Assembly: GCA_964558645.1 (NCBI GenBank)
Contig: CAZLEV010000006.1
Span: forward strand, 96,001 to 160,000
DNA from: an uncultured archaeon
GTDB taxonomy: Archaea; Asgardarchaeota; Thorarchaeia; Thorarchaeales; Thorarchaeaceae
Reading direction: 5' to 3'
DNA: 64,000 nt
Shown here piece by piece: positions 22,738 to 40,442 of this stretch. A program made the translations under genes and the position numbers. The notes beneath the pieces were generated by a model. That model did not search any database and was not told the origin of the DNA. It worked only from the letters and a program-made list of their open reading frames with translations. Positions within the stretch are counted from its first letter, which is position 1, and each line of letters starts with the position of its first letter.

Positions 22738-24378
22738 TCATTTTATCACAAGCTGATACGCTCCCGGCTCCAGTGACAGGTCGTAGTCTGTACCAGAAGC
22801 AGTGAGTACGCCCAAGACGGAACCAGACGAATAGGCTGTTGGTGCCGAGGCGAAATTGGTGAATGATAGCGTTGCCGACTGGTCAACCCGCACATTGAGA
22901 ATGAAGGCGTTTCTTGCTGCATCCCATTCTGCTTGATAGACCCAGATACGGTCGTCATCTGCGGAACTAATATAGGGATAATCCCAGAACTCTGCGGGCC
23001 GGGCATCCCCAAGGTCCATCACGGTGACAGGAGTATGAGCCCAGATCCATCCAAATGCCGCTACTGATTGCAGGAATGGTTCCAGCGACATGGTGTCAAA
23101 GTGTAACTGCCGACCATCTGGAGACCAGACCTTGTTGTACGAGTTGAAGAAGAAGTTCGCCAGTCGGTCTCTCGTGACATAGTCACCCATTTGATTCGCA
23201 AGATGCATGGTGAAGAGTGTGCCCAAGATGTCAAAGGTGCCAAATCCACCGGGGTTATTGTAGGTGTCCATGATGTATGCTGAATCGGCAGAGACGTCCT
23301 TCATGAAGTACTCTAAGAAAACCGGATAGTCTGCAGCACTCGCTTCTGGCTGAATATACTGCAGAAAAGCAAGAGCCCATCCATTGCAGTAGGACGAGAC
23401 CTTCGGACTGCCGTCGTCGGCATAAAGCGACTGTTGAGGTCCGGGAATCTCGTCCGGGACGCGACTCGTGTCATACAGTGAAGAGGTGGGTCTGTCGACG
23501 TAGTACCCATCAATGAAGAGGCTGTACTTATCCTGGGCTACAGTGTTCATGAAATTGAGTCCATAGTCCCACATGCCTCCCTCCCAGTATTGGGTAGCGT
23601 ACAGATTGTCATACAGCCTTGTACAGAGCATTGGGATTGAGTTACATTGTACAAACACTATGTAGGGTTCACAGGGAATCAGTCCGGTTCCCCAGAGACC
23701 GCCCTCTTTTGGATTGCCTCGCCTATCACTTGTAAGAGAAATGTTCCAATCGTCAACAAAGTAGTCGAGGTCACTCTTCATGAGGCCGGTGTTGAAACTG
23801 CGTTCATACATGGCCTCCATGAGGGCGATGTGAGCAGTCCACATGATATTGGCTGGACCACGGAAGCCCCCTGTGTAGATGGCTTCAGGGTCCGAGGCAT
23901 TATTGGGGTACCAGTAGTCCACATAATTATAGGACGGATGCAGCCACTCCTTGTATTCGATACTGTTGTTACCCCACTCGTCAAACGTTGTATTCATCTT
24001 CATTATCAGATCGTACAGGAAGTCGTGATAGTGATCGGTCCGATAGCCCGAAGTTGCCTCGAACATCATCGCGACCGTATAGGCCATGAACGCCAACACA
24101 TAGTGGTGCAGTCCGTGATACTGCTCAGCAAACCAACCGTCCCATTCCCCGTATCCCTGGTAGTCGCTGCTCACAATCGTGTCCAGATAGTTGAAAATTG
24201 CAAGCATATCGTGGTCAAGAGCCTTGTACTCAGCAAAGTCAAACTGGATGCCATCAACCGTCTGAACGCCTCTCGCTACGGGAGTAGCCGGCAGGTTACC
24301 CACGGTAAGACCACCAATGACAAGTGTCATGACAAGGGCCACCAAGAAATACTTGTTACTCATCAGTCTGTTGCTCAT
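22738..24378 (-). CDS. Secreted linalool dehydratase/isomerase (LinD)-like protein
   Basis: N-terminal signal/TM; YVLAFMAY, NIMWTAHIALM, CEPYIVFVQCNS, SSYCNGWALA resemble LinD motifs. Confidence 0.75.
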   Translation of the reverse strand: MSNRLMSNKYFLVALVMTLVIGGLTVGNLPATPVARGVQTVDGIQFDFAEYKALDHDMLAIFNYLDTIVSSDYQGYGEWDGWFAEQYHGLHHYVLAFMAYTVAMMFEATSGYRTDHYHDFLYDLIMKMNTTFDEWGNNSIEYKEWLHPSYNYVDYWYPNNASDPEAIYTGGFRGPANIMWTAHIALMEAMYERSFNTGLMKSDLDYFVDDWNISLTSDRRGNPKEGGLWGTGLIPCEPYIVFVQCNSIPMLCTRLYDNLYATQYWEGGMWDYGLNFMNTVAQDKYSLFIDGYYVDRPTSSLYDTSRVPDEIPGPQQSLYADDGSPKVSSYCNGWALAFLQYIQPEASAADYPVFLEYFMKDVSADSAYIMDTYNNPGGFGTFDILGTLFTMHLANQMGDYVTRDRLANFFFNSYNKVWSPDGRQLHFDTMSLEPFLQSVAAFGWIWAHTPVTVMDLGDARPAEFWDYPYISSADDDRIWVYQAEWDAARNAFILNVRVDQSATLSFTNFASAPTAYSSGSVLGVLTASGTDYDLSLEPGAYQLVIK

Positions 24379-24655: not shown

Positions 24656-25066
24656 ATGAAAGCCAGAAACAAACTCATCTGCATCGGTATCCTGATCATG
24701 GGAATGCTTGCGTCGACAGTAGTCTTTCTGGTCACGGACGATGCAGAAGGACCGATGATCTATCAGATAGATGTTCTTCCGGGCAGACCCCGCCCTGGAG
24801 ATATCGTCAATATAGTCATCTACTGTATAGATCCGTCAGGAGTATCAGGGGCAACGTTGTACTACTCGGTGAATAGCGCCGAGTGGAAGGAACAGACTAT
24901 GTACTTCTATGCGTGCTTATGCATTGCTGGTGGGCGATGGGTCGGAGAGGTTGGGCCCCTTGATGCCGGGGACAGCATCCAGTTCTATATCACTGCGTTT
25001 GACAATTCGGTCACAAAGAACTCCGCAGATACCCAAGCGTTCACAGTGGAAGTCATTGAAATATAG
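24656..25066 (+). CDS. Membrane-anchored/secreted Ig-like protein with CxC
   Basis: N-terminal TM; beta-rich DPSGV..ATLYY...YITAFDN; YACLC insert. Confidence 0.7.
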   Translation: MKARNKLICIGILIMGMLASTVVFLVTDDAEGPMIYQIDVLPGRPRPGDIVNIVIYCIDPSGVSGATLYYSVNSAEWKEQTMYFYACLCIAGGRWVGEVGPLDAGDSIQFYITAFDNSVTKNSADTQAFTVEVIEI

Positions 25067-25073
25067 AGGAGAG

Positions 25074-25268
25074 ATGTTATTGAGATTCGACAGCATGATA
25101 TACTTGTCTTTGATGATTCTCGGAATCGTGGTAGCAATAGCACCATGGACTTTCGCACCAGTATGTGTCAGCGAGATGCGATGTTGGTTCACGCGAGATG
25201 TCGAAACGGTTCTGGGAGCGGTCATAACCCTGTTAGCTGTAGTGGGGCTATACAGGAGCTTGGCGTAA
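25074..25268 (+). CDS. Small membrane protein, DUF4418-like
   Basis: TM-APVC...MRCWFT-TM; GAGGAG RBS. Confidence 0.6.
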   Translation: MLLRFDSMIYLSLMILGIVVAIAPWTFAPVCVSEMRCWFTRDVETVLGAVITLLAVVGLYRSLA

Positions 25269-25290
25269 GAAGACAGGAAGTCACATACCC

Positions 25291-25755
25291 ATGAATAGCG
25301 AACAGCGTAGGGCAGTACAGGTAATCCTAGTGGTTCTGTCTTGTTTTGCAGTCTTCACGTATACCTACGCTCTGGAAACAAAGCGTTACTGTGATTGGAC
25401 AGGCCTAGAGATCCAGGAGAGACTGGGCCACGAAGTCACATTTACTCTCACAAATGGCACTATACGTCACTATTGCGGCGTCAACACATCACTTGAAGCC
25501 CTACATGATATGACGGAGCGAAACGAGGAGATGTACATTGAAAGGATACAGGTTCGATGCCCTATGTGCGGAATGTTGATGGATTCGGACGACCCGATGA
25601 TAGTCTGGATATACTCAGAAGAGTATCTGAATCCGACCACCCACACTGCCACTATTGTGGGAGTCTGCGAGGATGCTGGTGATCAAGCCATGTGTGAAAC
25701 CCATTTTCTCGATCGGTACGGGGGAATAGTGATATCCAACCCCTATGTAGTCTAG
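25291..25755 (+). CDS. NosL-like membrane-anchored metal-binding protein
   Basis: N-terminal TM; CDWTG, HYCG, CPMCGM, C-terminal F..RYGG. Confidence 0.6.
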   Translation: MNSEQRRAVQVILVVLSCFAVFTYTYALETKRYCDWTGLEIQERLGHEVTFTLTNGTIRHYCGVNTSLEALHDMTERNEEMYIERIQVRCPMCGMLMDSDDPMIVWIYSEEYLNPTTHTATIVGVCEDAGDQAMCETHFLDRYGGIVISNPYVV

Positions 25756-25758
25756 GGA

Positions 25759-26172
25759 GTGACCGGGGTGAAAAAGGGAATACTTCTCGTTGCGGCCTTT
25801 GTCTCAACGACTCTAGTTGTGGGTATGACCCTTGCTGCGATTTCGTCTCAGCAAGTCGGAGGAGCCTGGCTGTTTCCCGATCTAGGCCCTGCTGTGATTC
25901 AAGATACTCAGTACGGTCGAGCACCAATACTAGAGTCACCGTTCAGTCCATTCGGAGATATTCCAGGCGGATATTCGCCCTACTGGGGAAATCTACTCGT
26001 TGATGAATTGCTGATAGAACCCTGGGAGTGTATTGAACTGCAGGGACTAGAACCGAGGGCACCTACACCTGATACAAGCACGATGTTACTAGGACTGCTG
26101 ATCACGACTCTTCCGTTGACAGTGGTCTCTCTTGCCGGGAGGCGATCATATGGGGCTTCGAAGACACGCTAA
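25759..26172 (+). CDS. Hypothetical membrane protein
   Basis: TM helices at both ends; in operon. Confidence 0.6.
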   Translation: MTGVKKGILLVAAFVSTTLVVGMTLAAISSQQVGGAWLFPDLGPAVIQDTQYGRAPILESPFSPFGDIPGGYSPYWGNLLVDELLIEPWECIELQGLEPRAPTPDTSTMLLGLLITTLPLTVVSLAGRRSYGASKTR

Positions 26173-27364
26173 CCTCACAGACTATGCCATCGGCAATGTG
26201 TTCAAGTATCGAACAAAGAGTATTGCAATCATATCGATATTGGTAATCTCATCAGGTCTCCTTGCCTCACTGGAGTTCATCAGAGAGGGGGTCGTACAGG
26301 ATGTGATTGCCTCAATGGACGAGGGGCCGGATGTGATAGTTCAGAGGCTCGAAGGGGGGAGACAAGTGGCAGTTCCAGTCGACTGGCGAACGAATATCAC
26401 ACAGATATCGGGATCCAGACTCGCCTCCGCCAGAGTATGGGGATATGTCAACATAGGAGGAGGACAGCTCCTCACGGTCATGGGAATCAATGCATCCGAA
26501 TACTCTTCGATACCGGGGATGGTCGGTACGAACATAGTGGGACAGGGAAGGTTTCTGGGAAACAACGATAGCAAGAAGATGGTTGTGGGGGAGGGAATCA
26601 TAGATTTGATGCGGGGTGCAGCACACCCCGTGGAGGTTGGCATAGGTAGTAGAATCCAGCTGATTGCCTACGATAACTCATTGGTCGAATTCGAGATTGT
26701 TGGAGTGTTTGCATCGGAGTCAAAGGTGTTCAGCTATGACCTCATAGTCACCGACACAGATAGTGCACGCCAAGTGCTTGGGATTGGGCAAGATGAGTGT
26801 ACAGACATAGCAATCTGGGTGAACTATGGTACGAATGTGGATGCAGTGGCATTGGTCATAGATACGGACTTCCCCGAAGCCAGAGTTCTCACTAGGCAAG
26901 GGATGACGGATATGAGTCTGAGAACATACCTTGGGCGTTCTGGCATTCTTGCTCTCATGTGGGCTGTGTTAGTATTGGCTGTGGTCATGACTGCCATTAC
27001 ATCATCAGGTATAGGATCGGAAGAGGCCAGACGGGAGGTGGGACTCCTCAAGGCTCTTGGATTCGATACGGCAAGTGTTCTCGAGATTAGACTCATAGAG
27101 TCGCTCGTCGTCAGTGTCCTAGGAGGTAGTCTGGGCATCTCATTGGCAATCGTGTTTGATTTTGTGTTCCAGGCCCCTCTGCTCTCAGGATTCATTCTTG
27201 GATGGAGCCTCGTCCTGATAAACGGAGGAATACCGCTGGCAATCTCCGTTGAGACGATATTCATGGTCTATACTGTATCCGTAGTGCCAGTTCTTGTTGC
27301 CACCGTGGTACCAGCATGGCGAAATGCAATCACAGACCCCGACATTGTATTGAGGGGGGTGTAG
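26150..27364 (+). CDS. ABC transporter permease, FtsX/LolCE/MacB type
   Basis: TM, large extracellular domain, then 3 TM; RREVGLLKALG, PAWR.A..DP. Confidence 0.9.
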   Translation: MGLRRHANLTDYAIGNVFKYRTKSIAIISILVISSGLLASLEFIREGVVQDVIASMDEGPDVIVQRLEGGRQVAVPVDWRTNITQISGSRLASARVWGYVNIGGGQLLTVMGINASEYSSIPGMVGTNIVGQGRFLGNNDSKKMVVGEGIIDLMRGAAHPVEVGIGSRIQLIAYDNSLVEFEIVGVFASESKVFSYDLIVTDTDSARQVLGIGQDECTDIAIWVNYGTNVDAVALVIDTDFPEARVLTRQGMTDMSLRTYLGRSGILALMWAVLVLAVVMTAITSSGIGSEEARREVGLLKALGFDTASVLEIRLIESLVVSVLGGSLGISLAIVFDFVFQAPLLSGFILGWSLVLINGGIPLAISVETIFMVYTVSVVPVLVATVVPAWRNAITDPDIVLRGV

Positions 27365-27365
27365 A

Positions 27366-28049
27366 ATGGATACAGCAGTTCGAACCGAGAGCGTATCCAA
27401 GCTATACAGGTCGGGTAGAACTCAGGTTGCAGCCCTCAGAGATGTGAGTCTGACAATCAAGAAGGGGATCGTGACAGTGATTGCAGGCCCAAGTGGTTCT
27501 GGAAAGACCACACTTCTGAGCATCATTGGCCTGCTAGCAAGACCATCTGAAGGGCATGTGTATCTTCGGGACAGAGAGGTGTCAGGCATATCAGACATAT
27601 TCCGAAGCAAAATGAGACAACAAGAGATCGGGTTCGTGTTTCAGAACCAGTATCTGCTCCCTCAACTCACTGCGGTTCAGAACGTGGCTCTTCCCTGTCT
27701 GGCTACGGATATGGCACGGGGTGAGGCTGAGAGGCTTGCAAGAGAACAACTCTCTCGTCTTGGCTTGGAAGACCGACTCGACTTCCGGGTGGCAGAGCTG
27801 AGTGGCGGAGAACAGCAACGAGTGAGTATTGCACGGGGGCTTATGAACAATCCTTCCATTCTTATTGCAGACGAGCCGAGTAGTTCAATGGAACAAGACT
27901 TGGTGGAGTACCTCCTCGACCTGCTCCGAGCAATGTGTGAAACGAGAGGATTGACAGTCATTGTGGCATCACACGACCCACTGGTGCTGGACTGGGGAGA
28001 TGAGGTCTACCGCCTCTCACAGGGAGAGCTGGTTGATTCTCAGCAGTAG
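27366..28049 (+). CDS. ABC transporter ATP-binding protein (LolD-like)
   Basis: GPSGSGKT, IGFVFQ, LSGGEQQRV, ADEP, SHD. Confidence 0.95.
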   Translation: MDTAVRTESVSKLYRSGRTQVAALRDVSLTIKKGIVTVIAGPSGSGKTTLLSIIGLLARPSEGHVYLRDREVSGISDIFRSKMRQQEIGFVFQNQYLLPQLTAVQNVALPCLATDMARGEAERLAREQLSRLGLEDRLDFRVAELSGGEQQRVSIARGLMNNPSILIADEPSSSMEQDLVEYLLDLLRAMCETRGLTVIVASHDPLVLDWGDEVYRLSQGELVDSQQ

Positions 28050-28075
28050 TCACCGTTCATTGTATGTTAGGCAGA

Positions 28076-28125
28076 CTTGGACTTCAGAGAGTTGTCCCCC
28101 CAGCTAACGGCACTGGGTGATCTCA
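28076..28125 (-). repeat. Stand-alone copy of the TnpB 3'-end double hairpin (putative omegaRNA scaffold end / IS right end)
   Basis: Minus strand TGAGATCACCCAGTGCCGTTAGCTGGGGGGACAACTCTCTGAAGTCCAAG aligns with 40122-40165 (about 39 of 44 nt); both stems preserved. Confidence 0.8.
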
Positions 28126-28235
28126 GTCGTGGTGAGCGATAGTGTGTGAATGACCAGCTCTCAGTCATGGGCTGGAAGCTATAGACTCCTGCGCTGAACT
28201 GCCCAACTCTGTCCACGTTTTCGGTAGCTGTTGGT

Positions 28236-29222
28236 CTACCCTGTCAGTGAAACGAGAACGTGGGTGAGAAGTGAGACCATACTGAACAAGATACTCACCG
28301 TCGAAGTCTTCAGAAGAAGTGTTGACAGGGGCTGGATTGATTCACCATCGAGGGAGCGGTCTTGCCAGCTCCAGTCCATGATTGCTCTCCAGCCTGCTGA
28401 GGCGATACCAAGCCAAAAGAGAGCTGTGAAGAGGGCCGTGTCGGGGAACTCTTGGAAAAGGCAGTACGGACAGTGATGACTTGGGAGACCAAGAACCAAC
28501 GGGGCGTAGGTATCATGGAGCACGAGGAGATAGACGAAACCTGCAGAGAGAGCCAGAAGAAGAGTTGGACCTAACCGTATCTTGGGTCTGAGATGACTCC
28601 ATTGAACAAGAATCAAGACGGTTGCCAAGGCAATAAGAAGTGCAAGGAGAAATATCCCGAATTCGGGGCCAAAGAGAGCGGAAGGGGAGAATGGTGGATC
28701 GACATCGTAGACGCTTCCACAGCACGGAGCAAAGACCGGCTTCACAGTCGCAACAAACAGGACGTCCACAGCAGCCTCGATGACAACCATGGGCAGGAGA
28801 ATCAGAAGGAACGAACGGGCCAAGTGTGTCATGAGAGGGAGTTCGGGATGGGTACGGTTCGCCAGTTCAAGCACAATCCAGGCACCGTAAGCAAAGGGTA
28901 GCACAATCTTCAGGGCCAAATCAATGAAAGAATACGGGTTGCCCACATTCATGACACCATATGCACACATCGCTCCGGGACAGAAGGGAACGATAGACTG
29001 AAGCATCCAGAAGAAGACAGGCACTATGAGAAGACGCCCGAGGAGAACAATGATGCCAATCATGGACAGGAGATAGTACTTCTGTTCAGAGGCCTCGTAC
29101 TCCTCCAAGTCGTCCCGTGAGTCCTCCATCATGTCCGACGCCACAAGGCCGCCATAGAGAGCCAATGCCAAGGAGAGAATGGCCACTACAAGGACTACGA
29201 TTGTGGTAACGGTGAATATCAT
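28236..29222 (-). CDS. Cys/His-rich polytopic membrane protein
   Basis: About 8 TM; loop motifs CPGAMCAYG, PCCGS, HHCPYC. Confidence 0.8.
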   Translation of the reverse strand: MIFTVTTIVVLVVAILSLALALYGGLVASDMMEDSRDDLEEYEASEQKYYLLSMIGIIVLLGRLLIVPVFFWMLQSIVPFCPGAMCAYGVMNVGNPYSFIDLALKIVLPFAYGAWIVLELANRTHPELPLMTHLARSFLLILLPMVVIEAAVDVLFVATVKPVFAPCCGSVYDVDPPFSPSALFGPEFGIFLLALLIALATVLILVQWSHLRPKIRLGPTLLLALSAGFVYLLVLHDTYAPLVLGLPSHHCPYCLFQEFPDTALFTALFWLGIASAGWRAIMDWSWQDRSLDGESIQPLSTLLLKTSTVSILFSMVSLLTHVLVSLTG

Positions 29223-29653: not shown

Positions 29654-30151
29654 ATGGCGGATGCAAGTACATCTGACGATGAAGAAGACTTTGGCGAAGC
29701 AGACCTGTTTGAGGCCATCTCTCACGAAACCAGAATTCGTGCCCTCTTTGCACTTCGAGATGAACCCCTTGGCTTTGCAGATCTCAAAAGGAAACTGGGC
29801 ATCTCAAGCAGCGGAAACCTGCAACACCACATCAGGAAGCTCGGAGGGGTCATTCATACAGATGAGACAGGGATGTACGCACTCACAGATCAGGGACGGG
29901 AGGCAATAATCGCGATACATGCAGTCAGGACTCTCGAGAATCGCAGGAAGTCGATTCTGCGCAGTATGACCGTGGTTGCAGTCTTTGCGTACTATGTTGT
30001 ACAGATGAACATACCATTTCTCTTCGGCACGGTGAACGCCATGACTCCTGTGCAAGCATTCTTGAGCTCTGCCGTCTTTGGGATCATATTCTATGTGCTA
30101 TGGAGAGCTTCATTGAAGCTGAATCCAGACCGGATTCCACCACAGAACTGA
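29654..30151 (+). CDS. ArsR-like winged-helix regulator with two C-terminal TM helices
   Basis: FEAISHETRIRAL...FADLKRKLGISSSGNLQHHIRKL...YALT..G, then hydrophobic C-terminus. Confidence 0.85.
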   Translation: MADASTSDDEEDFGEADLFEAISHETRIRALFALRDEPLGFADLKRKLGISSSGNLQHHIRKLGGVIHTDETGMYALTDQGREAIIAIHAVRTLENRRKSILRSMTVVAVFAYYVVQMNIPFLFGTVNAMTPVQAFLSSAVFGIIFYVLWRASLKLNPDRIPPQN

Positions 30152-30165
30152 TGTGAGGCCACGAG

Positions 30166-30594
30166 ATGTCCGATGAATTCAATATTTCAGAGGGGCTGAC
30201 ACACGAAGACTGGGAAAAAGTTCGAGCCCGCTTTGCAGCCTACAACGCCGAAAAGAGTGACGGACTATCAGGGGAGCCCGGCCTAGCTGTGCAGCTTGGC
30301 CTGAAGGATGAAGATGGAGAAATCAGAGGAGCGCTCGCAGGACGGGCGACGTACAGGAGTTTCTGGATTGACCTGCTCTGGATAGACGAGGGCTGCCGCG
30401 GAAGAGGGCATGGGACACGGCTTGTGCACGAGGCAGAGAAGATTGCCAAGGAACAGGGCTGTATATCTGTTCAGACCTCCACCTACTCGTTTCAGGCTCC
30501 CAAGTTCTACCGAGCCCTTGGCTACGAGGTCTTTGGGGAGTTCGATGACTATCCAGATGGCATCAGGAAGTACTTTCTCGGAAAGAAACTCTGA
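30166..30594 (+). CDS. GNAT family acetyltransferase
   Basis: IDLLWI....RGRGHG, TYSFQAPKFY..LGY. Confidence 0.93.
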   Translation: MSDEFNISEGLTHEDWEKVRARFAAYNAEKSDGLSGEPGLAVQLGLKDEDGEIRGALAGRATYRSFWIDLLWIDEGCRGRGHGTRLVHEAEKIAKEQGCISVQTSTYSFQAPKFYRALGYEVFGEFDDYPDGIRKYFLGKKL

Positions 30595-30651
30595 TACACC
30601 AGGTCCCGCAGTTCTTAAATGGAGAAATGACTGAGTTGAATCGGTGGTAGA

Positions 30652-30903
30652 ATGGCTGGAAGATGGTCTTTCGCAGTCAACGCACTTTCCTTTGCCATAG
30701 GATCTGCGCTTCTCATGATCTCTGTAGCAAGTGTCGTGCTTGGTGCTGCCTTCATAGTGGACCCGCCAAGTCACTTCAACTATTATTCCTACATGTATTG
30801 GACCACGATAAGTAGCGGTCTGGGAGCATTCCTCGGCACGCTGTTGATGTTTGTCGGGTGGAAGAGAGAGAAGGCAGAAACATTTGTAGGCACGGCTCAG
30901 TAG
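30652..30903 (+). CDS. Small membrane protein
   Basis: 83 aa with two TM helices. Confidence 0.6.
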   Translation: MAGRWSFAVNALSFAIGSALLMISVASVVLGAAFIVDPPSHFNYYSYMYWTTISSGLGAFLGTLLMFVGWKREKAETFVGTAQ

Positions 30904-30925
30904 TGAATGACGAACTAAGATGAAT

Positions 30926-31783
30926 TCAGACCTCGGAGTCCGAAACCGTATATTCGACGTTACCTTCTAAGGCGTATATCACTCCACAGTCCCACTGTCC
31001 GTAGGTCTCACCATTTCCCAAGGTCAGATTCCACGGCACATCGAACCACTCCCCTGTGTGGTTTGTGGCCGTCTGGAAGACACCGAGGGTGTAGTCCGTC
31101 CAATAGTAGCTGAACGATATCATGAAGTTGACCTCATGGCCCGCAATCATCAGAGCATCGCTTCGACTAATCGAGAGGGCAAGAAGAAGAGTAAACACAA
31201 CACTGGAGTCCTCGGGACCCAACCTGGTCAGGTCGAATGCAAGCTCGATGGTACAGAGATGCGTGAGAGAGTTGTTGGATGGCTGGGGCACGTTGTCTTC
31301 CAAGACTATGCCACTCACCTTACCGACATCGCCCTGAGCATCCCAGGTGACAGAGCTCTCAAGACCCGCGTGATACTTCACACTGTTCTCCCCATACTCT
31401 CCAGAAGTGCTGTTGACTGCAGGGGTGTAAGATACGTGGACCGAGTCCCCATCCCCCAGCTGGGTGAGTGATACCGCATCCATCCACGTGAAATCCGTGC
31501 TGCTGTCAGTTGCATCCATTGCGAAGACGTCGATACGGGCCTTTGAGGGAAGTGACATGGTCAGGCCTCTGCGATAACCGGCCACTGCCCCCATGATGAA
31601 CATCGGAAACACATGAGAGGTCTGGTCAACAGGATACCAGAACTCCTTCAGCGTCAGGAATGCCGCATCGCCGCTTCCGCCGTCGGGAAGCGGTGACAGT
31701 CGTGTCCCAAGCAGGACAAATGTGAAAAGAGGTGTGATCACAATCACGAGTAAGAGGACTGCCTTGATTTTGGTTCGTTGCAT
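30926..31783 (-). CDS. Membrane-anchored extracellular hypothetical protein
   Basis: MQRTKIK + TM, beta-rich domain with several N-X-S/T sequons. Confidence 0.7.
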   Translation of the reverse strand: MQRTKIKAVLLLVIVITPLFTFVLLGTRLSPLPDGGSGDAAFLTLKEFWYPVDQTSHVFPMFIMGAVAGYRRGLTMSLPSKARIDVFAMDATDSSTDFTWMDAVSLTQLGDGDSVHVSYTPAVNSTSGEYGENSVKYHAGLESSVTWDAQGDVGKVSGIVLEDNVPQPSNNSLTHLCTIELAFDLTRLGPEDSSVVFTLLLALSISRSDALMIAGHEVNFMISFSYYWTDYTLGVFQTATNHTGEWFDVPWNLTLGNGETYGQWDCGVIYALEGNVEYTVSDSEV

Positions 31784-31982
31784 TGCCCTTCGTATGTCAA
31801 TGTCCTCCTTCTGAATATCAGTCTTTCCAACGACTTGTCTTGATAGATGCGGATGATGAGCCAGAAGACCACAGTATAAGATGGTGGACTGAGAGGGGTT
31901 AGAAGAATCAATGTTCAACTCAGTACTATGAAACCATTGCCACGATAAACACCTGCACCCGTAGGTGAAGAGTATTCTTGTT

Positions 31983-32858
31983 TCATTCCAAGTTCTCGAT
32001 GATCCTCTTGTACTTGGAGAAGGCTTCCTCTGCCTCGGCATCTCTTCCAAGGTGCGAGAGAGCTGCAGCAAGTAAGGCGTAGGCCATTGGATCCGCGTAT
32101 CCCTCCTCGATGCTCGCCCTGAACGCTCTCGCACACTCCCCCCACTCCCTAAACATGAGGAACAACTCTCCCCAATGGAACCAGGTCTTTCCGTATCGGA
32201 CTTCTAGGGAGAGGGACTTGTTGAGGTTCTCCATTGCATCTCTTATGGTATCCCGTTCATCCACCTCTGGGTCTTCCGTCTTGACTCGCTCAATCAGTGC
32301 TTCGGCCAGTCCTGTGTGGGCCTTGTAGTCGTACGGGTCGGTATCGATAGCCCGCCTCAGATACATCTCAGCATCCTCCGGCCTGTCCAGAGAGAGAAGA
32401 TGCGCTCCATACTCCCGCAGAACCTCAGCGTCGTCAGGAGTCAGTTGTACAGCCCGATAGAAGGCACGCTCGGCCTTCTCCGGTCTCCCCAATCTGGTCA
32501 GGGTGAGAGCGAGATATAGATGCGATTGTGCATCATCTGGTATCAGTCCCGTTGCCGTCGCCAAGGCCTTCAAGGCAGGCTCGTAGCGCTCTTGGAGATA
32601 GAGGATTCTCCCAAGGCTCCACCAGGCAACACCGAGAGAACAGTCGATCTCCACCGCCTTCCGCGCCAGCTGTTCAGCCTCCTGATAGTCTCCCAGATCT
32701 GTAAATACCAGGGACATGTTGTGATATGCCTCGGTGGCGCCGGGGGCCAGCTCGATGGACCTACGGAGAGCCTGGATGCAGCCATCGGTATCACCCAGAA
32801 GAAGGCAGCACTCAGCAATGTCGTTCCAGACCACCGGGTCAGGCTCTGTCAGGTCCAT
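31983..32858 (-). CDS. Tetratricopeptide repeat protein
   Basis: Repeated W..LG......G.Y..A...L..A....P pattern. Confidence 0.9.
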   Translation of the reverse strand: MDLTEPDPVVWNDIAECCLLLGDTDGCIQALRRSIELAPGATEAYHNMSLVFTDLGDYQEAEQLARKAVEIDCSLGVAWWSLGRILYLQERYEPALKALATATGLIPDDAQSHLYLALTLTRLGRPEKAERAFYRAVQLTPDDAEVLREYGAHLLSLDRPEDAEMYLRRAIDTDPYDYKAHTGLAEALIERVKTEDPEVDERDTIRDAMENLNKSLSLEVRYGKTWFHWGELFLMFREWGECARAFRASIEEGYADPMAYALLAAALSHLGRDAEAEEAFSKYKRIIENLE

Positions 32859-32950
32859 GAGGGAACAGGGAGTCTAACTTCTTCCGAAGAATCTCGAAAT
32901 GCTTCTGCTTGTAGTTGCTCGGATCTGTCAAGATACCCCTCAATTGTGAG

Positions 32951-33065
32951 TATCAACCGCGAACTATCGTGATACTGCTATGGATTCTGAAAGAGAGTAT
33001 TCCGAAACTTCTATAACCAGAAAGCCAGCAGAAACGACCCAGTTGGCTAGGTGATGTAGAAGCGC
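32951..33065 (+). repeat. Degenerate inverted copy of the tRNA-Lys upstream/promoter region and 5' end
   Basis: 32994-33023 AGAGTATTCCGAAACTTCTATAACCAGAAA vs minus strand 40381-40352 AGAGCATTCCGAAACCTCTATAACCAAAAA (27/30); weaker similarity on both sides. Confidence 0.75.
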
Positions 33066-33127
33066 TGTCTTGCCAAGTCGCCGGAAGTTGCGATGGTTTC
33101 TGCTTCTCAGATAGTTGTTTCAGTCAA

Positions 33128-36100
33128 CTAGTTTCCATTAAATCCCTCAGAAACGAGTAGGTCTACAAGCCGTCCAGTCCGGAGTGCTGCAGGCAGTCGT
33201 ATATCCTCAATTGAACTCACATCAAGTCTAACTGAATGTATCAATCCACTCGATACATCTATGAACTGTTCCACCTCTGCAAGCAAGGCCACATCATAAA
33301 TGTTCATTCTTTCCTCCTCGAGCTTCTTCAGTTGTGAATTCTCGGACAAGCCATCTAACTTGACAGTAAGCACAGGATGTCGGAGTCGGTGCATCGCCAT
33401 GATTTTCTCATCATAACGAATATACATGGTCACCGGAGGGGACATTTGCGCAGAGAGAAGCTGTTCTACATTCTTCGGATAGACATAGCTCTCCAAGAAA
33501 TGCCTGCGATGCACCAGCGGTTTTAGAAATGATAGGCTGAACCACTCCTCCTCTTTTCCGCCATATCCATACTCAATATCAGTGAGATGATCCCACGTCA
33601 AGATTGCGCCCTCTTCAGTAGTGACACTGCGCCCATCGAGGGCAGTTGACCGAAGAAAGGCCACAACCTCCGCGGTTCGGGGAGTTCGGAACTCGTACTG
33701 CGGCTCCCGCGATGACCTGCACGTGACAACGTAGGTTTCTTGACTCAAATCCACGGTCACCTCACATGTGACAGACATCACTCTATGCTGTTGTTCTGCA
33801 ATCCTCTCCAGCACCGGATGAAATCTCTCAAGACTGTGTGTGGGTGCTCCAATGGGGCACTCTTCCAGATTGAGAGCCGTTTTCATAGAGAGAGGGGAGA
33901 GTCGAACCCACAAGAGAGAGGTGACCCCCTTTGAATCTTGGTGGCTTCCGTAGTCTAGTCTGCCAACGAGCCCCCATTCATCGTTATCATGACTCCATTC
34001 CCATAGAATCTCTTGGCCGCCTACATTGGTCACGGCCAGTGACTCTTCAATCCAAAGGCAAGACGCATCAAGCAGCTCTTGTGCACCGTCACTGAGTTCT
34101 GCTGGATTGCTCGAACACCACTGGAATCCCAAACGTAGCCTCTCCTGTTTTTCTCTCATAAGACCACAGACAGCTTGACCGTCTGGGCGTTCGAAGAGGA
34201 ACCATAGATGGTATTCATCACCCACTAGAAGCCCTGGCCTATAAATGGCAGGCAGGGAAGATATCTCGCTAACACGGTCGTCCACTTCGGTTTCTCTGGT
34301 TGTGAGGTATTCTGCACGCGAGAGGAGATTTGCGAAGATTGTCTGAAAGTCGTACACTGACTGGATTCTCTCCTGAGATGCCTGAACCGGGGCGAATCCC
34401 ATCTGATACGGTAGCCATTCAACCACAGATTCCCAGAGGGGAATCGCAGCCGAGTGCCCCTCATCCCGAACCGTCTTGGCCAGTGCAGCCATGATTCCCA
34501 AGAGGAGATTATTCCCATAAAGAGCAAGGGCATCCGGATTCTCACGGCGAATATCGGCAAGGAGCAGACGATTCTCCGCACTGAGAGTCTCACCTACCAG
34601 CTCACGATACGGCTCAATCAGTTGCCAGGCTCGTGCACGACTGGGGTGACGGATGAGGAGGTCTCTGACTTGGAGAAGTACACCAACGTAATTACCGGGC
34701 TCATCGGAGTTGCTCAGGGCACCCTCGCACAGTGAATGCACCTGTCTACACAGAACATACATGTCATCGTGTGCAGGGAACTGGCATTTCAGGAACCTTG
34801 CCGCATCTCGTAGCCGTCTAATCTCTCTCCTCCGTGCAGTCGGACTATCCAGAAAGATCAGCTCGGTCTTCCCGTAGAGGGGAGGTTTTCGCGTGTAGTG
34901 CTTCTCAGCTTCAGTTTCTCTCTGTGTCTTATGATGCCAGTGGCGTGGGATGCCCACAGGACCTGCATACATCTTCGCTTCAGTTGCTCGTTTCGGAATT
35001 GGGGGAGGGTGAATGGGACAGAGATGAAGTCGTTCTCTTAGAGGAGGGCTCTCCGTCTTCCTTACCAAGTGGCTAGAGATGGAATACGGTGTGCTTTGCG
35101 GTTCAGCCACCGCTACACTCATTGATCCGTTCCTAGATCGAAGAAGAGTCGGCGAAACAGTCATTGCCTCAGCCTGGAGATCTTGGACTGCGTGTTCAGT
35201 GAGGTAGGAGATTGTGCTCTGGATGTTTCCCAGTATCACATCTCGTCCGTGCATTGATTGCGAAGTGACCATCTCTTCCATGATATCTTCCTCGGCGACT
35301 ATCTTATCGCGCTTCGAACCACCCCTAAACTTTCGCGCCCACTTCCTTAGGACGGGCACCTCAATCATAGTGCTCCAAGGAGGGGCGCTCGTCGGTGTGT
35401 CCTGTACGATTATTCGTTTCTCATCGGCATAGGGAGTCTGCCAGCCGAACACTCTGGGAGCAGTGGGTATATTCCAGATGACTTCATCCAGCTGGAAACG
35501 CCTGGGAGAGTCATGGGGCAGAACATCAAGACACGGTCGTTGGTACGTTTCATTCATTCTTGTGGCTTTCACGCCACTATCCACCCAGATGATATTGACG
35601 TTGTTGTCAGGGAGCGTGTCAAGAATGGAACATTCGAGCGCCAAGAGTCGTTCCTTCTGCGAGGTAGGAGTCATCTGATTCAGGTCCGCCCAGCCATCTA
35701 CGATGATGACACGCTCCGTTTCTTCCAACCCAGAGATGGCAGTGAGGCTCTGAATTGTGTTTGATTCGCCTTTGAGAAACGACTCGATGTCACCGCTCAG
35801 GTCCATGAATATGATATTCTCAAGCAAATCCGAAGACTTGTCGTCCAGTCCCAAACGCCGGGTGCGCAGCCTCTCAGGAAGACTCCCCAATAGGTCAAGC
35901 CAATAGACTGAGGGAGACGACGAGGAGTGTCTCACGACTTCATCAATGTGATGTAAGAGGTGCCAGTTCTTGGCGTGCCATGCAGCAGCATTTCCTCCAG
36001 AGGTGGGCGAGGGCACAGAGATATACTGGGTGAGGATGCGTTCGTCAGCATTCCGATTCTCAAAGGGATTGTCTACCTTGATGTTGTCTGCTATGGCCGC

Positions 36101-37813
36101 CTCTCGCATCGCACCTACGGGTCCCGAACAGGGAGCCATGAGGAGAGCTATTCGGCCACCTCCTGTCGATCTATTGAACCTGTGGGAGGTCCATCCCTTT
36201 GTAGAAACGAAGTCTGCAGGATTTGCCTGTAGGCTGGAGAGCATTCCTTCAAGAGCATCTAATATCGACTCGTAGCTCTCAGCCGTATCCAAAATGACGA
36301 CGCCCTTCCATAGCTCGCGCGGAGCAAATGTGTCCTGAGGCACTAGTTGTCTGTACTCACGAACCAGTGTCTTCTCATAGAGAGCTAGCTGGTCACGTGT
36401 CCGTTTGATGGGGAGAGAGGTCGATATGGTTGACCATTCCTGAGGCATCAGCCGCGTCTTCCAACAATGCAATACCGGGGCAGAGTGGTCTTTCTTCGTC
36501 CGTGGTCGCATCCAATAAAGATTGTAATCGAAGGCAGTCTTCGTCTTGAGTTCAAGGATCATCACAGGAGTCCAAACAATACGCAGTCCAACACTCCGTC
36601 GAACAAAGAGCACCAGGTCCGCCTTGCCATGACCTCTGTTTGAACGGATGGGCACCTCAGCAAGGAACTGTCTGTCTGTGGGACACTCCAGCATCGAGTC
36701 CCCGGCAAACAGCACCGACTTCAGAGATCGTGGATGATGGAAGACCGAGAGGAGTACCCTGTGCCAGTCATTGCCCTCGCGCTGGCTGATGGCCGAAACC
36801 TGCTCTCGGAGTCTCATCAAGTCTGGCTCCGTGATGTACTCCGAGCCGATGTAAGCGAGGATCCTGTCACAAGCATCCCGGACCTCTTTCGATGTCGAAC
36901 TACTGCGAAGTGACTGTGTCTTAGACTTGAGGAACTCTACCGTAAGGGGGGCCGTGTCCTCCCACTCAAGTTGGTCAGAAAGACGCTCTCGTCTACCAGC
37001 GCGACGCCCATACACGGCCCGTATCTCCAGAACGATATCTCTCAGTTCTCTGTCCGCTTCGGGGTAGAAGTCCTTTCGTCCTGTCATTCCCTCAGAATAG
37101 AACCAGTCAAGGAATGGCTTGAGTCTGTGGATAAGGAGGCGGATGTATCGATGTGCCTCGTTTCGCGGAACGTTGTAGATGAAGAGCTGCCGACAGAGCT
37201 CCTGTACGTGTCCGCGGATCATGTCTACAAAATCGAGTTCTGGAAGTGTGGGGTGTGAGAGCAAGAAACGTGGGCTCTTGGAGTCACCAGGATAGCCTGC
37301 TCGCCAATACTCCCTCACGGCATCGTCAGGAGTGTCTTCTGATACAACTGAACGAGGAACGAATGTCTTGCGCCCATCGGCATACTGCAAAAACAGGTAG
37401 TACTGCGGTTCGGGAAAGGGGTAGTGAGTTGTAGCGAGATCTCGGAGACGAGCTCCCGCATAGTTCAGTAGACTATTCAGCGGACCCACACTTCCCTCCC
37501 GCCAGCTGTATACCCGTTTGAACTCTCGATTGCCGTACCGTTTCGTGCTGTGCCAGATGATGTCCAGCCACCTCTGACGCAAGAGATGCTCGATATTCTG
37601 GACAGAAGAGAAGTCATGGGGGCTCAAGACCTGATTCTCTTTCAGCTCCTTCTTCGCACTAGTCCAGACCTTAGTCATGGAGTTGACATACTTCTGGGTC
37701 TGGGAGCTACCTCGGGCCTGCGCTAGTCTGACTAAGGCAGCAAGCCCGGTCATGACTGATTGGGCCAGAATCTGGCTTGGTTTCCCTGAACTCCCTAGAC
37801 GCGACACTTCCAT
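33128..37813 (-). CDS. Large hypothetical protein with PD-(D/E)XK nuclease-like domain and possible degenerate P-loop-like domain
   Basis: AEVPI..GKADLVLF..ILELKT..DQLALYE; later VYWLD and RVIIVDGW without a canonical Walker A. Confidence 0.65.
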   Translation of the reverse strand: MEVSRLGSSGKPSQILAQSVMTGLAALVRLAQARGSSQTQKYVNSMTKVWTSAKKELKENQVLSPHDFSSVQNIEHLLRQRWLDIIWHSTKRYGNREFKRVYSWREGSVGPLNSLLNYAGARLRDLATTHYPFPEPQYYLFLQYADGRKTFVPRSVVSEDTPDDAVREYWRAGYPGDSKSPRFLLSHPTLPELDFVDMIRGHVQELCRQLFIYNVPRNEAHRYIRLLIHRLKPFLDWFYSEGMTGRKDFYPEADRELRDIVLEIRAVYGRRAGRRERLSDQLEWEDTAPLTVEFLKSKTQSLRSSSTSKEVRDACDRILAYIGSEYITEPDLMRLREQVSAISQREGNDWHRVLLSVFHHPRSLKSVLFAGDSMLECPTDRQFLAEVPIRSNRGHGKADLVLFVRRSVGLRIVWTPVMILELKTKTAFDYNLYWMRPRTKKDHSAPVLHCWKTRLMPQEWSTISTSLPIKRTRDQLALYEKTLVREYRQLVPQDTFAPRELWKGVVILDTAESYESILDALEGMLSSLQANPADFVSTKGWTSHRFNRSTGGGRIALLMAPCSGPVGAMREAAIADNIKVDNPFENRNADERILTQYISVPSPTSGGNAAAWHAKNWHLLHHIDEVVRHSSSSPSVYWLDLLGSLPERLRTRRLGLDDKSSDLLENIIFMDLSGDIESFLKGESNTIQSLTAISGLEETERVIIVDGWADLNQMTPTSQKERLLALECSILDTLPDNNVNIIWVDSGVKATRMNETYQRPCLDVLPHDSPRRFQLDEVIWNIPTAPRVFGWQTPYADEKRIIVQDTPTSAPPWSTMIEVPVLRKWARKFRGGSKRDKIVAEEDIMEEMVTSQSMHGRDVILGNIQSTISYLTEHAVQDLQAEAMTVSPTLLRSRNGSMSVAVAEPQSTPYSISSHLVRKTESPPLRERLHLCPIHPPPIPKRATEAKMYAGPVGIPRHWHHKTQRETEAEKHYTRKPPLYGKTELIFLDSPTARRREIRRLRDAARFLKCQFPAHDDMYVLCRQVHSLCEGALSNSDEPGNYVGVLLQVRDLLIRHPSRARAWQLIEPYRELVGETLSAENRLLLADIRRENPDALALYGNNLLLGIMAALAKTVRDEGHSAAIPLWESVVEWLPYQMGFAPVQASQERIQSVYDFQTIFANLLSRAEYLTTRETEVDDRVSEISSLPAIYRPGLLVGDEYHLWFLFERPDGQAVCGLMREKQERLRLGFQWCSSNPAELSDGAQELLDASCLWIEESLAVTNVGGQEILWEWSHDNDEWGLVGRLDYGSHQDSKGVTSLLWVRLSPLSMKTALNLEECPIGAPTHSLERFHPVLERIAEQQHRVMSVTCEVTVDLSQETYVVTCRSSREPQYEFRTPRTAEVVAFLRSTALDGRSVTTEEGAILTWDHLTDIEYGYGGKEEEWFSLSFLKPLVHRRHFLESYVYPKNVEQLLSAQMSPPVTMYIRYDEKIMAMHRLRHPVLTVKLDGLSENSQLKKLEEERMNIYDVALLAEVEQFIDVSSGLIHSVRLDVSSIEDIRLPAALRTGRLVDLLVSEGFNGN

Positions 37814-38002
37814 CCATTGGTGATGATTATTTATATAGATATTCTAGACTATCTGTAAGAAATTAAATTCTCTCATAATCCTTTATTCTGGGTAAAAACG
37901 CCTAATAATCCTTCTAGACCGATAAGAAGCAATCTTGCTTGGTAGCTTTATAACGGTTTATGAGATTATAACTTCTGAGCCACACAAGAGAGAGGTGTAC
38001 TG
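37814..38002. promoter_or_regulatory. AT-rich divergent control region between the large nuclease-like gene and tnpB
   Basis: Markedly AT-rich; TTTATATA/TTTATAA boxes; short direct and inverted repeats. Confidence 0.55.
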
Positions 38003-40159
38003 TTGATGACGAAAGAAGCCCGGCGTCGTCCCCGGGAGCATGCTGCGAGGGACCCCTCGGAGAAGCAACAGACAATGGATGACAGCTTTATATCGGTCAC
38101 GTCAACAACGCACCACGGTACGGGTCTGAAGTATCTGACCACCGAGTTCTCCCTCTGCTCCGTTCATCGGGGGGTGAACAAGAGGGGGAAGGGAAGGGGA
38201 CCAGACCCACGATTCCGAAGGGGTGAGCTTGCTGCACTCCAGGAGCGCCTCTCGGCGACCACCGGGCGGAAGGTCAACGACATCGACCTCTCTCTACTTG
38301 GCTCATATTTCGAAACGTTTGTCTCACTGGTGAACCAGGTCCTTGAACGCGTGTATGCTGACAAGGGACGGTTTGCGTTTCTCGGCGAGGAGCTGGCCGG
38401 TTATCCAAGGCAGGGCTATGCCCTTCTCAAGAGTGAGGATTCTGTGAGATACAGGAGTCATCCTGAGGTCCAGGAGCAGTGCTTCGAGCGGCTGTACCGC
38501 AACGCTCTGGAGCATGCTGCGCGTATCATCCAGTCCAACTGGTTGCGACGGCAGCTGATGAAGGCAGCTATCGAGTATCTCTGCGAGAACGAGAGCGACC
38601 TGACCCGGCTGCTGAAGAACCGGTATATCGCAAGCGACCTGACCAAGGCAGTTCGGGGAGCATGTGAGTCCACGAAGAACAACGGGACCGGGTTCTACTA
38701 CAGTCTCTCGGTCCTGAAGCAGCTCCGTCGAAGACTGGACCACTCGATCCTCGAGAAGCGAGGGGAACCGCTTAGCACTCGCCCCTATCAGCGGGGGAGG
38801 ATTCGCAGGTATCTCAAGGAGAAACCGACAGCCAACAGCATCCTCAAGATTGCAAGAGGGAAACTCCGTCAGTGGCACAAGAGGGGCTATCCCTTCGCCA
38901 CTCCAAGGATGTACTCCCACACCGAAGACTTCTCGGCCAGCACGGAGAACTCTCCCAGTCAAGGATACTGGTACTCACAGGACTTGGAGAAGGAGAACGA
39001 GGTGCTGTTTTTCCTGAAGCTCCCTGAGCCCATGGAGGGAGAGGCACATGAAACCTCCCCCTACAAGACCAGGACTCTTGCGTTTCGTTTCCTTGATTGG
39101 CTGCCCCGGGCCGCAAGAGAGGACAGAGCGAGGGCAGAGGAGGCCAAGGCTCAGGGCAAGCACCTGAGAGCAAAGAAGCTTCGATTTCGAGCACGGAAAT
39201 ACGAGGACCAGCATGAGCAGTTGATCAACACCATCGAGCTTCAGCATGCCGTCTATCAGCTGAACAGATGGAAGAACCGCAAGAACGCCGACTCCGAGAA
39301 GCTAGCACAACTGAAGGAGAAAGTGCAGCGACTGAGAGAGTCCCGTACCTGCGGTCCACCCGCTCTCCTCTTGCGGGGTCATCGTGTCATTCTAGACATA
39401 CCCTTTCTCCCACCCACTCAGGAGATGGTGGATGAAGTCCTTGGAACGCGGGAGTACACCCGCAAGGCTGGTGCTGATCGTGGCATCCGTGTACCCATCG
39501 TGCTCTCGGTGCGGAACGGTGAGGGCTACGTGGATGAGTTTCTCTCTCTGGAGGAACTGGTGAAGAAGCGCAATCTCCTCAGGCATCAGACCAAGGCACT
39601 CTCCTCACGGGTTGCTCTCATGCGCAACAACTGGGAACGTAAGCATGGCAAGGACTATTCGAGACCGGGCTCTCTCAGGAAGAAGGAGCGACATCTGGAT
39701 GCTCTCTGGAAGAAGGTCCGCAGACTCGATCGCGAGATTGCCCGACAGATTGCCTCGAGGGCTGTGTGGTTCTGCGAGAGGTACGGTGTCAAGACGCTCT
39801 ATTTCGAGAACCTGAAGAACTACCAGGCACCAAAGGGCTACGGGGATCTATCATGGCGGCTCTCATTCAATCTCTGGTCGCAGGTGCTTGAGGCCGTACG
39901 ATATATGCGTCAGGTCCTGGGGCATCGTTTCGGTGGCGTCTGGACGGTGACTCCAGCGTGGACCTCTCGAAAATGCCATGTCTGCGGGGAGACAGGTGTA
40001 AGGGTGGAGCGAGAGGGATCGAAAGAGGAGTACCGTGGGGGCGAATACTTCTACTGTGAGAACTGCGCTGCATACTTCCATGCCGATGTCAATGCGGCAA
40101 GGAACATCATTGAAGTTGATATGAGACAACCCAGTGCCGTTGCTGGGAGGACGAGCTAG
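38003..40159 (+). CDS. tnpB: Large TnpB/Cas12-like RNA-guided nuclease candidate (718 aa)
   Basis: RuvC-I GADRG, bridge helix, RuvC-II YFENL, TSRKCHVCG...CENC zinc ribbon, RuvC-III HADVNAARNI. Confidence 0.88.
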   Translation: MMTKEARRRPREHAARDPSEKQQTMDDSFISVTSTTHHGTGLKYLTTEFSLCSVHRGVNKRGKGRGPDPRFRRGELAALQERLSATTGRKVNDIDLSLLGSYFETFVSLVNQVLERVYADKGRFAFLGEELAGYPRQGYALLKSEDSVRYRSHPEVQEQCFERLYRNALEHAARIIQSNWLRRQLMKAAIEYLCENESDLTRLLKNRYIASDLTKAVRGACESTKNNGTGFYYSLSVLKQLRRRLDHSILEKRGEPLSTRPYQRGRIRRYLKEKPTANSILKIARGKLRQWHKRGYPFATPRMYSHTEDFSASTENSPSQGYWYSQDLEKENEVLFFLKLPEPMEGEAHETSPYKTRTLAFRFLDWLPRAAREDRARAEEAKAQGKHLRAKKLRFRARKYEDQHEQLINTIELQHAVYQLNRWKNRKNADSEKLAQLKEKVQRLRESRTCGPPALLLRGHRVILDIPFLPPTQEMVDEVLGTREYTRKAGADRGIRVPIVLSVRNGEGYVDEFLSLEELVKKRNLLRHQTKALSSRVALMRNNWERKHGKDYSRPGSLRKKERHLDALWKKVRRLDREIARQIASRAVWFCERYGVKTLYFENLKNYQAPKGYGDLSWRLSFNLWSQVLEAVRYMRQVLGHRFGGVWTVTPAWTSRKCHVCGETGVRVEREGSKEEYRGGEYFYCENCAAYFHADVNAARNIIEVDMRQPSAVAGRTS

Positions 40160-40165
40160 TCCAAG
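40122..40165 (+). ncRNA. Putative 3' end of the TnpB omegaRNA scaffold / element right end
   Basis: Overlaps the tnpB stop; hairpins CCCAG..CTGGG and GGAC..GTCC; boundary after AGTCCAAG defined by the second copy at 28076-28125. Confidence 0.6.
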
Positions 40166-40255
40166 AAACAATCAGCGGCCGATTGCTCAGCCGGTATTGA
40201 TCTGCATTAGATATGGAAGACGATTGGAATTGACCTATACCCATTAAGGAGTTGA

Positions 40256-40332
40256 TGGCGGGCCAGGAGGGATTTGAACCCTCGACCAACAAGTTAAGAG
40301 CCTGTCGCTCTGCCTAACTAAGCCACTGGCCC
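40256..40332 (-). tRNA. tRNA-Lys(CTT), intronless, CCA encoded
   Basis: GGGCCAGTGGCTTAGTTAGGCAGAGCGACAGGCTCTTAACTTGTTGGTCGAGGGTTCAAATCCCTCCTGGCCCGCCA. Confidence 0.97.
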
Positions 40333-40351
40333 ACTCGTCCGCTGTGCCTCT

Positions 40352-40381
40352 TTTTTGGTTATAGAGGTTTCGGAATGCTCT
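40352..40381 (-). promoter_or_regulatory. BRE/TATA promoter of tRNA-Lys
   Basis: CCGAAA + CTATAA about 25-40 nt upstream of the tRNA. Confidence 0.6.
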
Positions 40382-40442
40382 GGTTCATTGATCCGTAAGT
40401 CGGACTTACAGTTCGATGTTGAAAGGAAGTCCTCAGTCCACT

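Follow-up and report, generated by a model that had tools for sequence, protein, structure and literature searches.

The repeat at positions 28053..28240 (minus strand) of the analysed stretch of Thorarchaeaceae DNA (64,000 nucleotides, hereafter the window) is, judged from its ends and its target, a non-autonomous IS607 derivative. It is a gene-less mini-element of 188 bp, counting both GG cores, with boundaries that are common to 14 copies and a site that is empty in the congener G001. We think it probable that this IS607-family mini-transposon doubles as a self-contained omegaRNA cassette, which would be moved in trans by TnpA, loaded by TnpB and able to guard its own insertion. The type of element is already known, and the present copy is decaying and matters little as a single locus. 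New here are the empty site, the family-wide promoter spacing, a stem that is specific to the minis and the test for neutral decay.

Extent, target and mobility of the mini-element

A sequence-only reading had pointed out an orphan match, 12 kb away, to the scaffold end of the window tnpB. Both sequences are found where it located them, and the match is genuine (local score 42, whereas 100 query shuffles over the window reached 31 at most); no TnpB coding is seen in the DNA upstream of the copy, as had been noted. The match makes up the 3' third of the 188-bp repeat (28240-28053, minus strand). The orphan is not a lone one: searching the genome with it and its flanks, a step that the same reading had proposed, yields 14 near-full copies of ~190 bp with 75-87% identity. 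When aligned, their boundaries are sharp at the start (G-GG-TATACC) as well as at the end (AATGAAC-GG-T), and their flanks are unrelated, including those on the 3' side. The right end of the mini-element matches ~38 places in the genome at E<0.01, including tnpB gene ends and other mini sub-families. The mini-element carries neither an effector nor a transposase in cis, its 3' flank varies between copies and it bears signs of mobilisation. Over 38 minis, total lengths cluster at 177-179, 186-190, 198, 208-210 and 219 bp.

Two further arrangements were seen. At L080 (G000 C6 15508-15773) two minis adjoin back to back, apparently through insertion of one into or against the other, and L006 (G000 C16 ~23814-23883 and ~25582-25651) holds two ~60-bp elements in which left- and right-end repeats are fused directly, without an RNA core.

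The right boundary lies further out than was thought. Similarity had been said to stop sharply after AGTCCAAG, but once a gap is placed for a lost 10-nt repeat, CATACAATGAACGG aligns to AAACAATCAGCGG. About the same holds throughout the family: ~29 tnpB loci share this type of right end, and tnpB-linked ends extend to AAT(G/C)AAC-GG. Hence the two differing downstream sequences that were named as guides are both conserved element end, and the guides start at 28052 and 40179. In the earlier reading the boundary and the two guides were off by 14-24 nt, and the family is IS607. In the window tnpB, the cis omegaRNA core and the shortened right end, from which one 10-nt repeat has been lost, occupy 40130..40178 (plus strand).

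The left junction (28239..28244, minus strand) reads ACAG-GG and combines a target- or TAM-like (A)GGG with the crossover GG. Insertion occurred at an AG-GG-T site and split the last Gly codon of a membrane gene. The congener G001 has the same genes without the element, which is the empty-site allele that the earlier reading had advised looking for. If the element and one GG are removed in silico, ACA GGG TGA (Thr-Gly-stop) is restored, as in G001, and a single GG is left without duplication, in agreement with the initial remark that no target-site duplication can be seen. The element brought its own stop codon, so the host membrane protein is unchanged. The position first given for the copy, about 110 nt after this gene, fits the scaffold match, which starts 111 nt past the stop, but not the element, since the stop itself (28238-28236) lies inside it.

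The same pattern recurs in other copies. For a mini on C15 there is a near-identical empty site, which retains one GG and shows no target-site duplication. The target consensus of 38 minis is (A)G-GG-T, with G before the core in 32 and T after the core in 33; the right core is GG in 36 of the 38, and GG is found at both junctions. Two direct repeats TGGACA with a 10-bp period (28200..28215, minus strand), the presumed TnpA sites, lie ~24 nt inside the left end, and their reverse complement lies ~14 nt inside the right end, also with 10-bp spacing. The end repeats are inverted between the ends and stand at unequal distances from the termini. In these respects the family resembles known IS607 elements: short inverted repeats at unequal distances have been described for IS607 ends (IS1535; PMC6188088), and GG cores, absence of duplication and G-rich TAMs for CboIStron (PMC10690162) and ISXfa1 (10.1101/2023.08.09.552727). 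The differences are that this copy is gene-less, that the TnpB of the family measures 700-730 aa and that in full elements of the family tnpA and tnpB are separated by a gene for a cargo protein of 1500-1900 aa.

In complete elements of related genomes, tnpA is followed by the large reversed cargo gene, then by tnpB and the right end. An intact IS607 tnpA above the NCBIfam cut-off (NF033518) is present in G036, G021 and G009, beside left-end-like sequence, and the left end of the minis also stands 5' of tnpA in related genomes wherever this could be scored. All tnpA copies found in the host genome are broken, just inside such left ends. Given that no intact tnpA was found in the host assembly (93% complete), the 188-bp copy is probably immobile now. 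L002:2111-7014 (G000 C5) is a 4.9-kb IS607 element in which tnpA and tnpB are broken and the cargo ORFs are intact.

Other classifications were tried and rejected. Membership of IS200/IS605 disagrees with a target that is G-rich rather than an AT-rich TAM, and a search of the genome for PF01797 gave no match, which also argues against a Y1 transposase as mobiliser. The minis share with classical MITEs that they are short, gene-less, present in multiple copies and moved in trans, but they have neither terminal inverted repeats nor target-site duplications. Like the aCas1-TnpB loci of Asgard archaea (PMC10691335) they involve a TnpB in an Asgard host; here, however, no Cas1 is nearby. The tnpB has no linked aCas1 gene and the sole Cas1 of the genome belongs to a CRISPR locus, with none near the tnpB loci, and aCas1 was rejected as mobiliser as well. 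A long CRISPR array, accompanied by cas1, cas4 and other cas-like genes, is located at L009 (G000 C4 100000-118000).

Structure and putative promoter of the candidate omegaRNA

Several helices can be assigned to the putative mini-element RNA (coordinates on the minus strand). The 5' hairpin P0 spans 28130..28156 and has one C-C mismatch in this copy. Stem P1 (28085..28126, with arms 28126-28121 and 28090-28085) surrounds the pseudoknot hairpin and shows one U-U mismatch here. This hairpin, P2 (28099..28117, CCCAG/CTGGG), is intact, and its loop CCGTT (28110-28106) pairs with the terminal AACGG (28053..28057), which represents both the 3' strand of the pseudoknot and the right GG core. The segment 28066..28097 contains the GGAC/GTCC stem together with two right-end repeats GTCCAA, the inverse of the left-end repeats, of which the second is degenerate in this copy.

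A covariation check, likewise suggested beforehand, reveals compensatory changes in the pseudoknot, in P1 and in the GGAC/GTCC stem. Over 30 ends, the pseudoknot and its hairpin are paired in 98% of the cells with 20 two-sided changes, which is reached by 0/500 shuffles, although related sequences are not independent and the shuffle counts are therefore not probabilities. A sixth pair of the pseudoknot adds 17 compensatory cases. The two stems that were initially proposed, CCCAG/CTGGG and GGAC/GTCC, are thus real, and both covary in tnpB-linked ends. P1 shows 27 two-sided changes over 36 gene-less minis from ~ten genomes and is absent from the tnpB-linked ends. These ends also lack the 5' hairpin, which is of variable sequence in the minis (mean z -1.4). 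RNAalifold on a rough alignment of the minis recovered part of the structure only; the helices were obtained via a column scan and counted with controls. Rfam holds no model for the mini-element RNA.

Similar features are known from the TnpB and omegaRNA of IS607 elements, in which the scaffold ends in GG and a pseudoknot joins a hairpin loop to the guide-adjacent bases. The activity of ISXfa1 needs this pseudoknot (10.1101/2023.08.09.552727). Its loop lies ~130 nt from the guide in ISXfa1, against ~55 nt here.

A TATA-like box (28179..28185, minus strand), weakened to TCTATAG in this copy, stands ~70 nt upstream of the pseudoknot hairpin. In an A+T profile of 40 ends a peak of 0.80-0.88 is seen at -69 to -64 relative to the hairpin, and tnpB-linked ends are without it. 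The distance from TATA to hairpin amounts to 68-71 nt in 29 of 38 minis; here the picker broke ties towards 70, a bias from which the A+T profile is free. The spacer between the left end and TATA varies in steps of ~10 bp (near 5, 15, 25, 35 and 45). From these spacings we infer a promoter at a constant distance from the RNA and on a constant helical phase relative to the TnpA sites. The TATA box would speak for expression indirectly. A scan for sigma-70 promoters and terminators returned nothing, and such a scan does not cover archaeal promoters.

The minis can be regarded as stand-alone candidate omegaRNAs, with a pseudoknotted scaffold homologous to that of a tnpB locus which the genome also carries. 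Homology is lacking between the 5' half of their RNA and the corresponding half of the cis RNA, which codes for TnpB, and loading by the family TnpBs is therefore an assumption. In tnpB-linked copies a hairpin over the ADxNAA codons of tnpB (window 40082-40098) covaries at wobble positions (22/35 Watson-Crick, 9.4 expected). This hairpin is probably part of the cis omegaRNA, and it may play the role of the 5' domain there. The same scaffold is found in two settings, namely in a cis RNA overlapping tnpB and in a stand-alone cassette that is driven by a promoter and has another 5' domain, and as such marks the core that the unusually large Asgard TnpB likely needs.

Predicted guide, proposed retention and competing explanations

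In the mechanism that we favour, a full-length element would have provided the serine transposase TnpA, which would have bound the TGGACA repeats and moved the mini in trans through recombination at GG. From the TATA box, an RNA of ~100 nt plus a 16-nt guide from the flank would be transcribed, and any 718-733-aa TnpB of the genome, which has at least three intact large ones, could load this RNA. The complex would cut the empty allele only (TAM ~AGGG), and we propose that repair from the filled chromosome copy then restores the element. This cut-and-repair retention is modelled on an IS607 IStron, in which the insertion is maintained because the empty allele is cut and then repaired from the filled copy (PMC10690162). 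Standalone, mobilised omegaRNAs that work in trans have been published (Altae-Tran et al. 2021). As far as they are summarised in PMC10691335, these OMEGA loci have in common with the minis a mobilised scaffold without effector or transposase, effector loci in the genome and a guide provided by the 3' flank. The minis differ in their IS607 parent, Asgard host, archaeal TATA box and 5' RNA domain of their own, and their role in trans is a predicted one.

A trans guide from the minis is plausible in our opinion. The two labels that the sequence-only reading had offered, a non-autonomous remnant and a candidate trans-encoded omegaRNA, seem right in kind, given the pseudoknot, the fixed TATA box and the empty site. 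The family predicts a TAM of ~AGGG and can serve to test whether IS607 minis without genes protect their insertions by using, in trans, a TnpB encoded elsewhere.

The design would be selected in actively spreading master elements, after which resident copies would decay. The present copy has 91% identity to the family consensus, with the pseudoknot and P2 intact; besides the altered TATA box, P0, P1 and the GGAC stem contain a single mismatch apiece, and the second right-end repeat has two changes. Taken alone the copy folds no better than shuffles (z=+1.2), and the function of its RNA may be no more than partial. Among the 14 resident copies, changes are no rarer in stems than elsewhere (12.0% against 12.3%, P=0.95). 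For the set of resident copies, selection was accordingly rejected in favour of neutral decay, although the pseudoknot of this one copy is still intact, and selection on spreading masters rather than on settled copies is indicated.

It might be argued that neutral decay, together with the missing stand-alone folding signal of this copy, simply marks the minis as pure passengers. They would then be substrates of the transposase only, their RNA-like core would be a remnant of the right end of the parent element, and guide RNA would be neither produced nor used; the right-end repeats have to be kept for TnpA anyway. However, binding of TnpA explains neither a TATA box fixed at ~-70 across minis of several genera nor compensatory changes in P1 across genera in which the internal mini sequences differ. 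We therefore consider this explanation unlikely and prefer a cassette that would supply RNA to TnpB.

The predicted guide (28037..28052, minus strand) is host flank, begins with the original TGA stop and has the empty allele as its natural target. Elsewhere in the genome no GG-preceded match is better than 3 mismatches in 16, and none goes beyond chance, which leaves the empty allele as the sole natural target. The 15 exact 16-mer matches in IMG/VR are about the chance level for billions of bases. The predicted guide is also antisense to the last codons of an ABC ATPase gene. This position, along with the intact pseudoknot and P2, could be taken as a sign of domestication, in which case the copy would persist because it directs TnpB to another, useful target, for instance the ABC ATPase gene or a virus. 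Such a role is very improbable: synteny identifies the guide as plain host flank, the 3 mismatches of the next best GG-preceded genomic target speak against it and the congener is without the element. The neighbourhood (window 24656-29222) encodes Cys/His-rich membrane and exported proteins, an FtsX permease and the ABC ATPase, convergent on the insertion-bearing HHCPYC membrane gene.

The earlier suggestion of one nuclease with two guides implied a special pairing with the tnpB 12 kb away. This did not survive, as the orphan end is nearer to the tnpB ends of C14 and C1 (48/66 columns) than to that of the window (43/66). Hardly credible, finally, is the idea that both copies are the ends of a composite element, or terminal repeats, around the 12.1-kb block from which they point outward: both copies represent right ends, the orphan possesses a left end of its own at a distance of 190 bp, and G001 combines an empty site with an inverted tnpB module and a lack of collinearity among the middle genes.

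The window tnpB, its cargo gene and tRNA-like guides

The tnpB gene of the window (38003..40159, plus strand) encodes a 718-aa protein and belongs to a family with at least three full-length members in the genome. Its RuvC triad (D492, E602, D695) is invariant in 19 homologues; the ORF has a Pfam TNB domain, and the best matches among solved folds are Cas12f and TnpB. Two named homologues derive from assemblies of Candidatus Thorarchaeota, in keeping with a Thorarchaeote host. Divergent from it lies a 1561-aa cargo gene (33128..37813, minus strand), which is situated between tnpA and tnpB in complete elements. The cargo protein accompanies tnpB in 16/30 loci and has six homologues in the host genome; Pfam, NCBIfam and Atlas gave no match. 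Its structural model (pLDDT 83) resembles a RecA/Rad51-like fold over ~240 columns at 10-17% identity, and a PD-(D/E)xK-like motif with invariant D399 and K423 was picked by eye. The module of cargo gene, tnpB and tRNA-Lys (window 30110-40440) has the opposite orientation in G001, where collinearity is also lost for the GNAT, hypothetical and TPR genes in between.

The true guide slot of the window tnpB (40179..40194, plus strand) copies the tRNA-Lys(CTT) 5' end of other Thorarchaeia and has 6 differences over 14 nt from its own tRNA-Lys(CTT), which is encoded convergently at 40256..40332 (minus strand). A tail-to-tail orientation of tnpB and tRNA-Lys(CTT) was found without selection in five genomes of three genera. 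The same arrangement is present in further genomes and metagenome contigs; these later loci were picked for tRNA-like guides, and only the first five Lys loci are unbiased.

Beside tRNA-Lys, the tnpB guide copies ~16 nt of the tRNA 5' end after GGG. All nine distinct pairs show 3-6 differences over 14 positions between the guide and the tRNA-Lys allele next to it, and the guide is often closer to another allele; that of the window is identical to the G031 allele at 14/14 positions. Other tnpB copies have guides that copy tRNA-His, -Leu, -Arg and -Ile. At L005:2187-4388 (G000 C2), L174, L180, L183, L191 and G000 C16 the guide copies part of the adjacent tRNA (His 3' end, His or Leu anticodon arm, Arg or Ile 5' end), with the own allele always mismatched. 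The His guide of G001 matches the His allele of the host genome for 12 nt. In a permutation test of self versus non-self tRNA-Lys alleles, comprising six pairs only, no excess self-avoidance appeared (4.0 vs 4.0), and the notion that guides avoid self thus comes from the direct comparisons only.

These patterns suggest RNA-guided homing at tRNA genes, which the tRNA-aimed guide of the window tnpB makes testable. A comparable case is phage T4 SegB, which cleaves tRNA genes (PMC13565253): in both, a nuclease gene is fixed beside a tRNA gene and apparently aimed at tRNA sequence. The window tnpB differs from SegB in being RNA-guided, and cleavage and homing are predictions here. Alternatively, the tRNA-like guide could be a stranded, partly conserved relic of an insertion site.

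A wider scheme, which is speculative and in our estimate rather doubtful, would have the IS607 elements of Thorarchaeia split in two. The promoter-bearing minis, numbering in the tens, would form a dispersed set of trans guides. The immobilised large TnpBs with their cargo would act as RNA-guided, free-standing homing endonucleases that cut non-self alleles of the tRNA gene beside them and spread with their own resistant allele. A second TnpB type, of 561 aa, occurs at L012:9077-10974 (G000 C2), where it is also paired with a large cargo gene and followed by tRNA-Gly.
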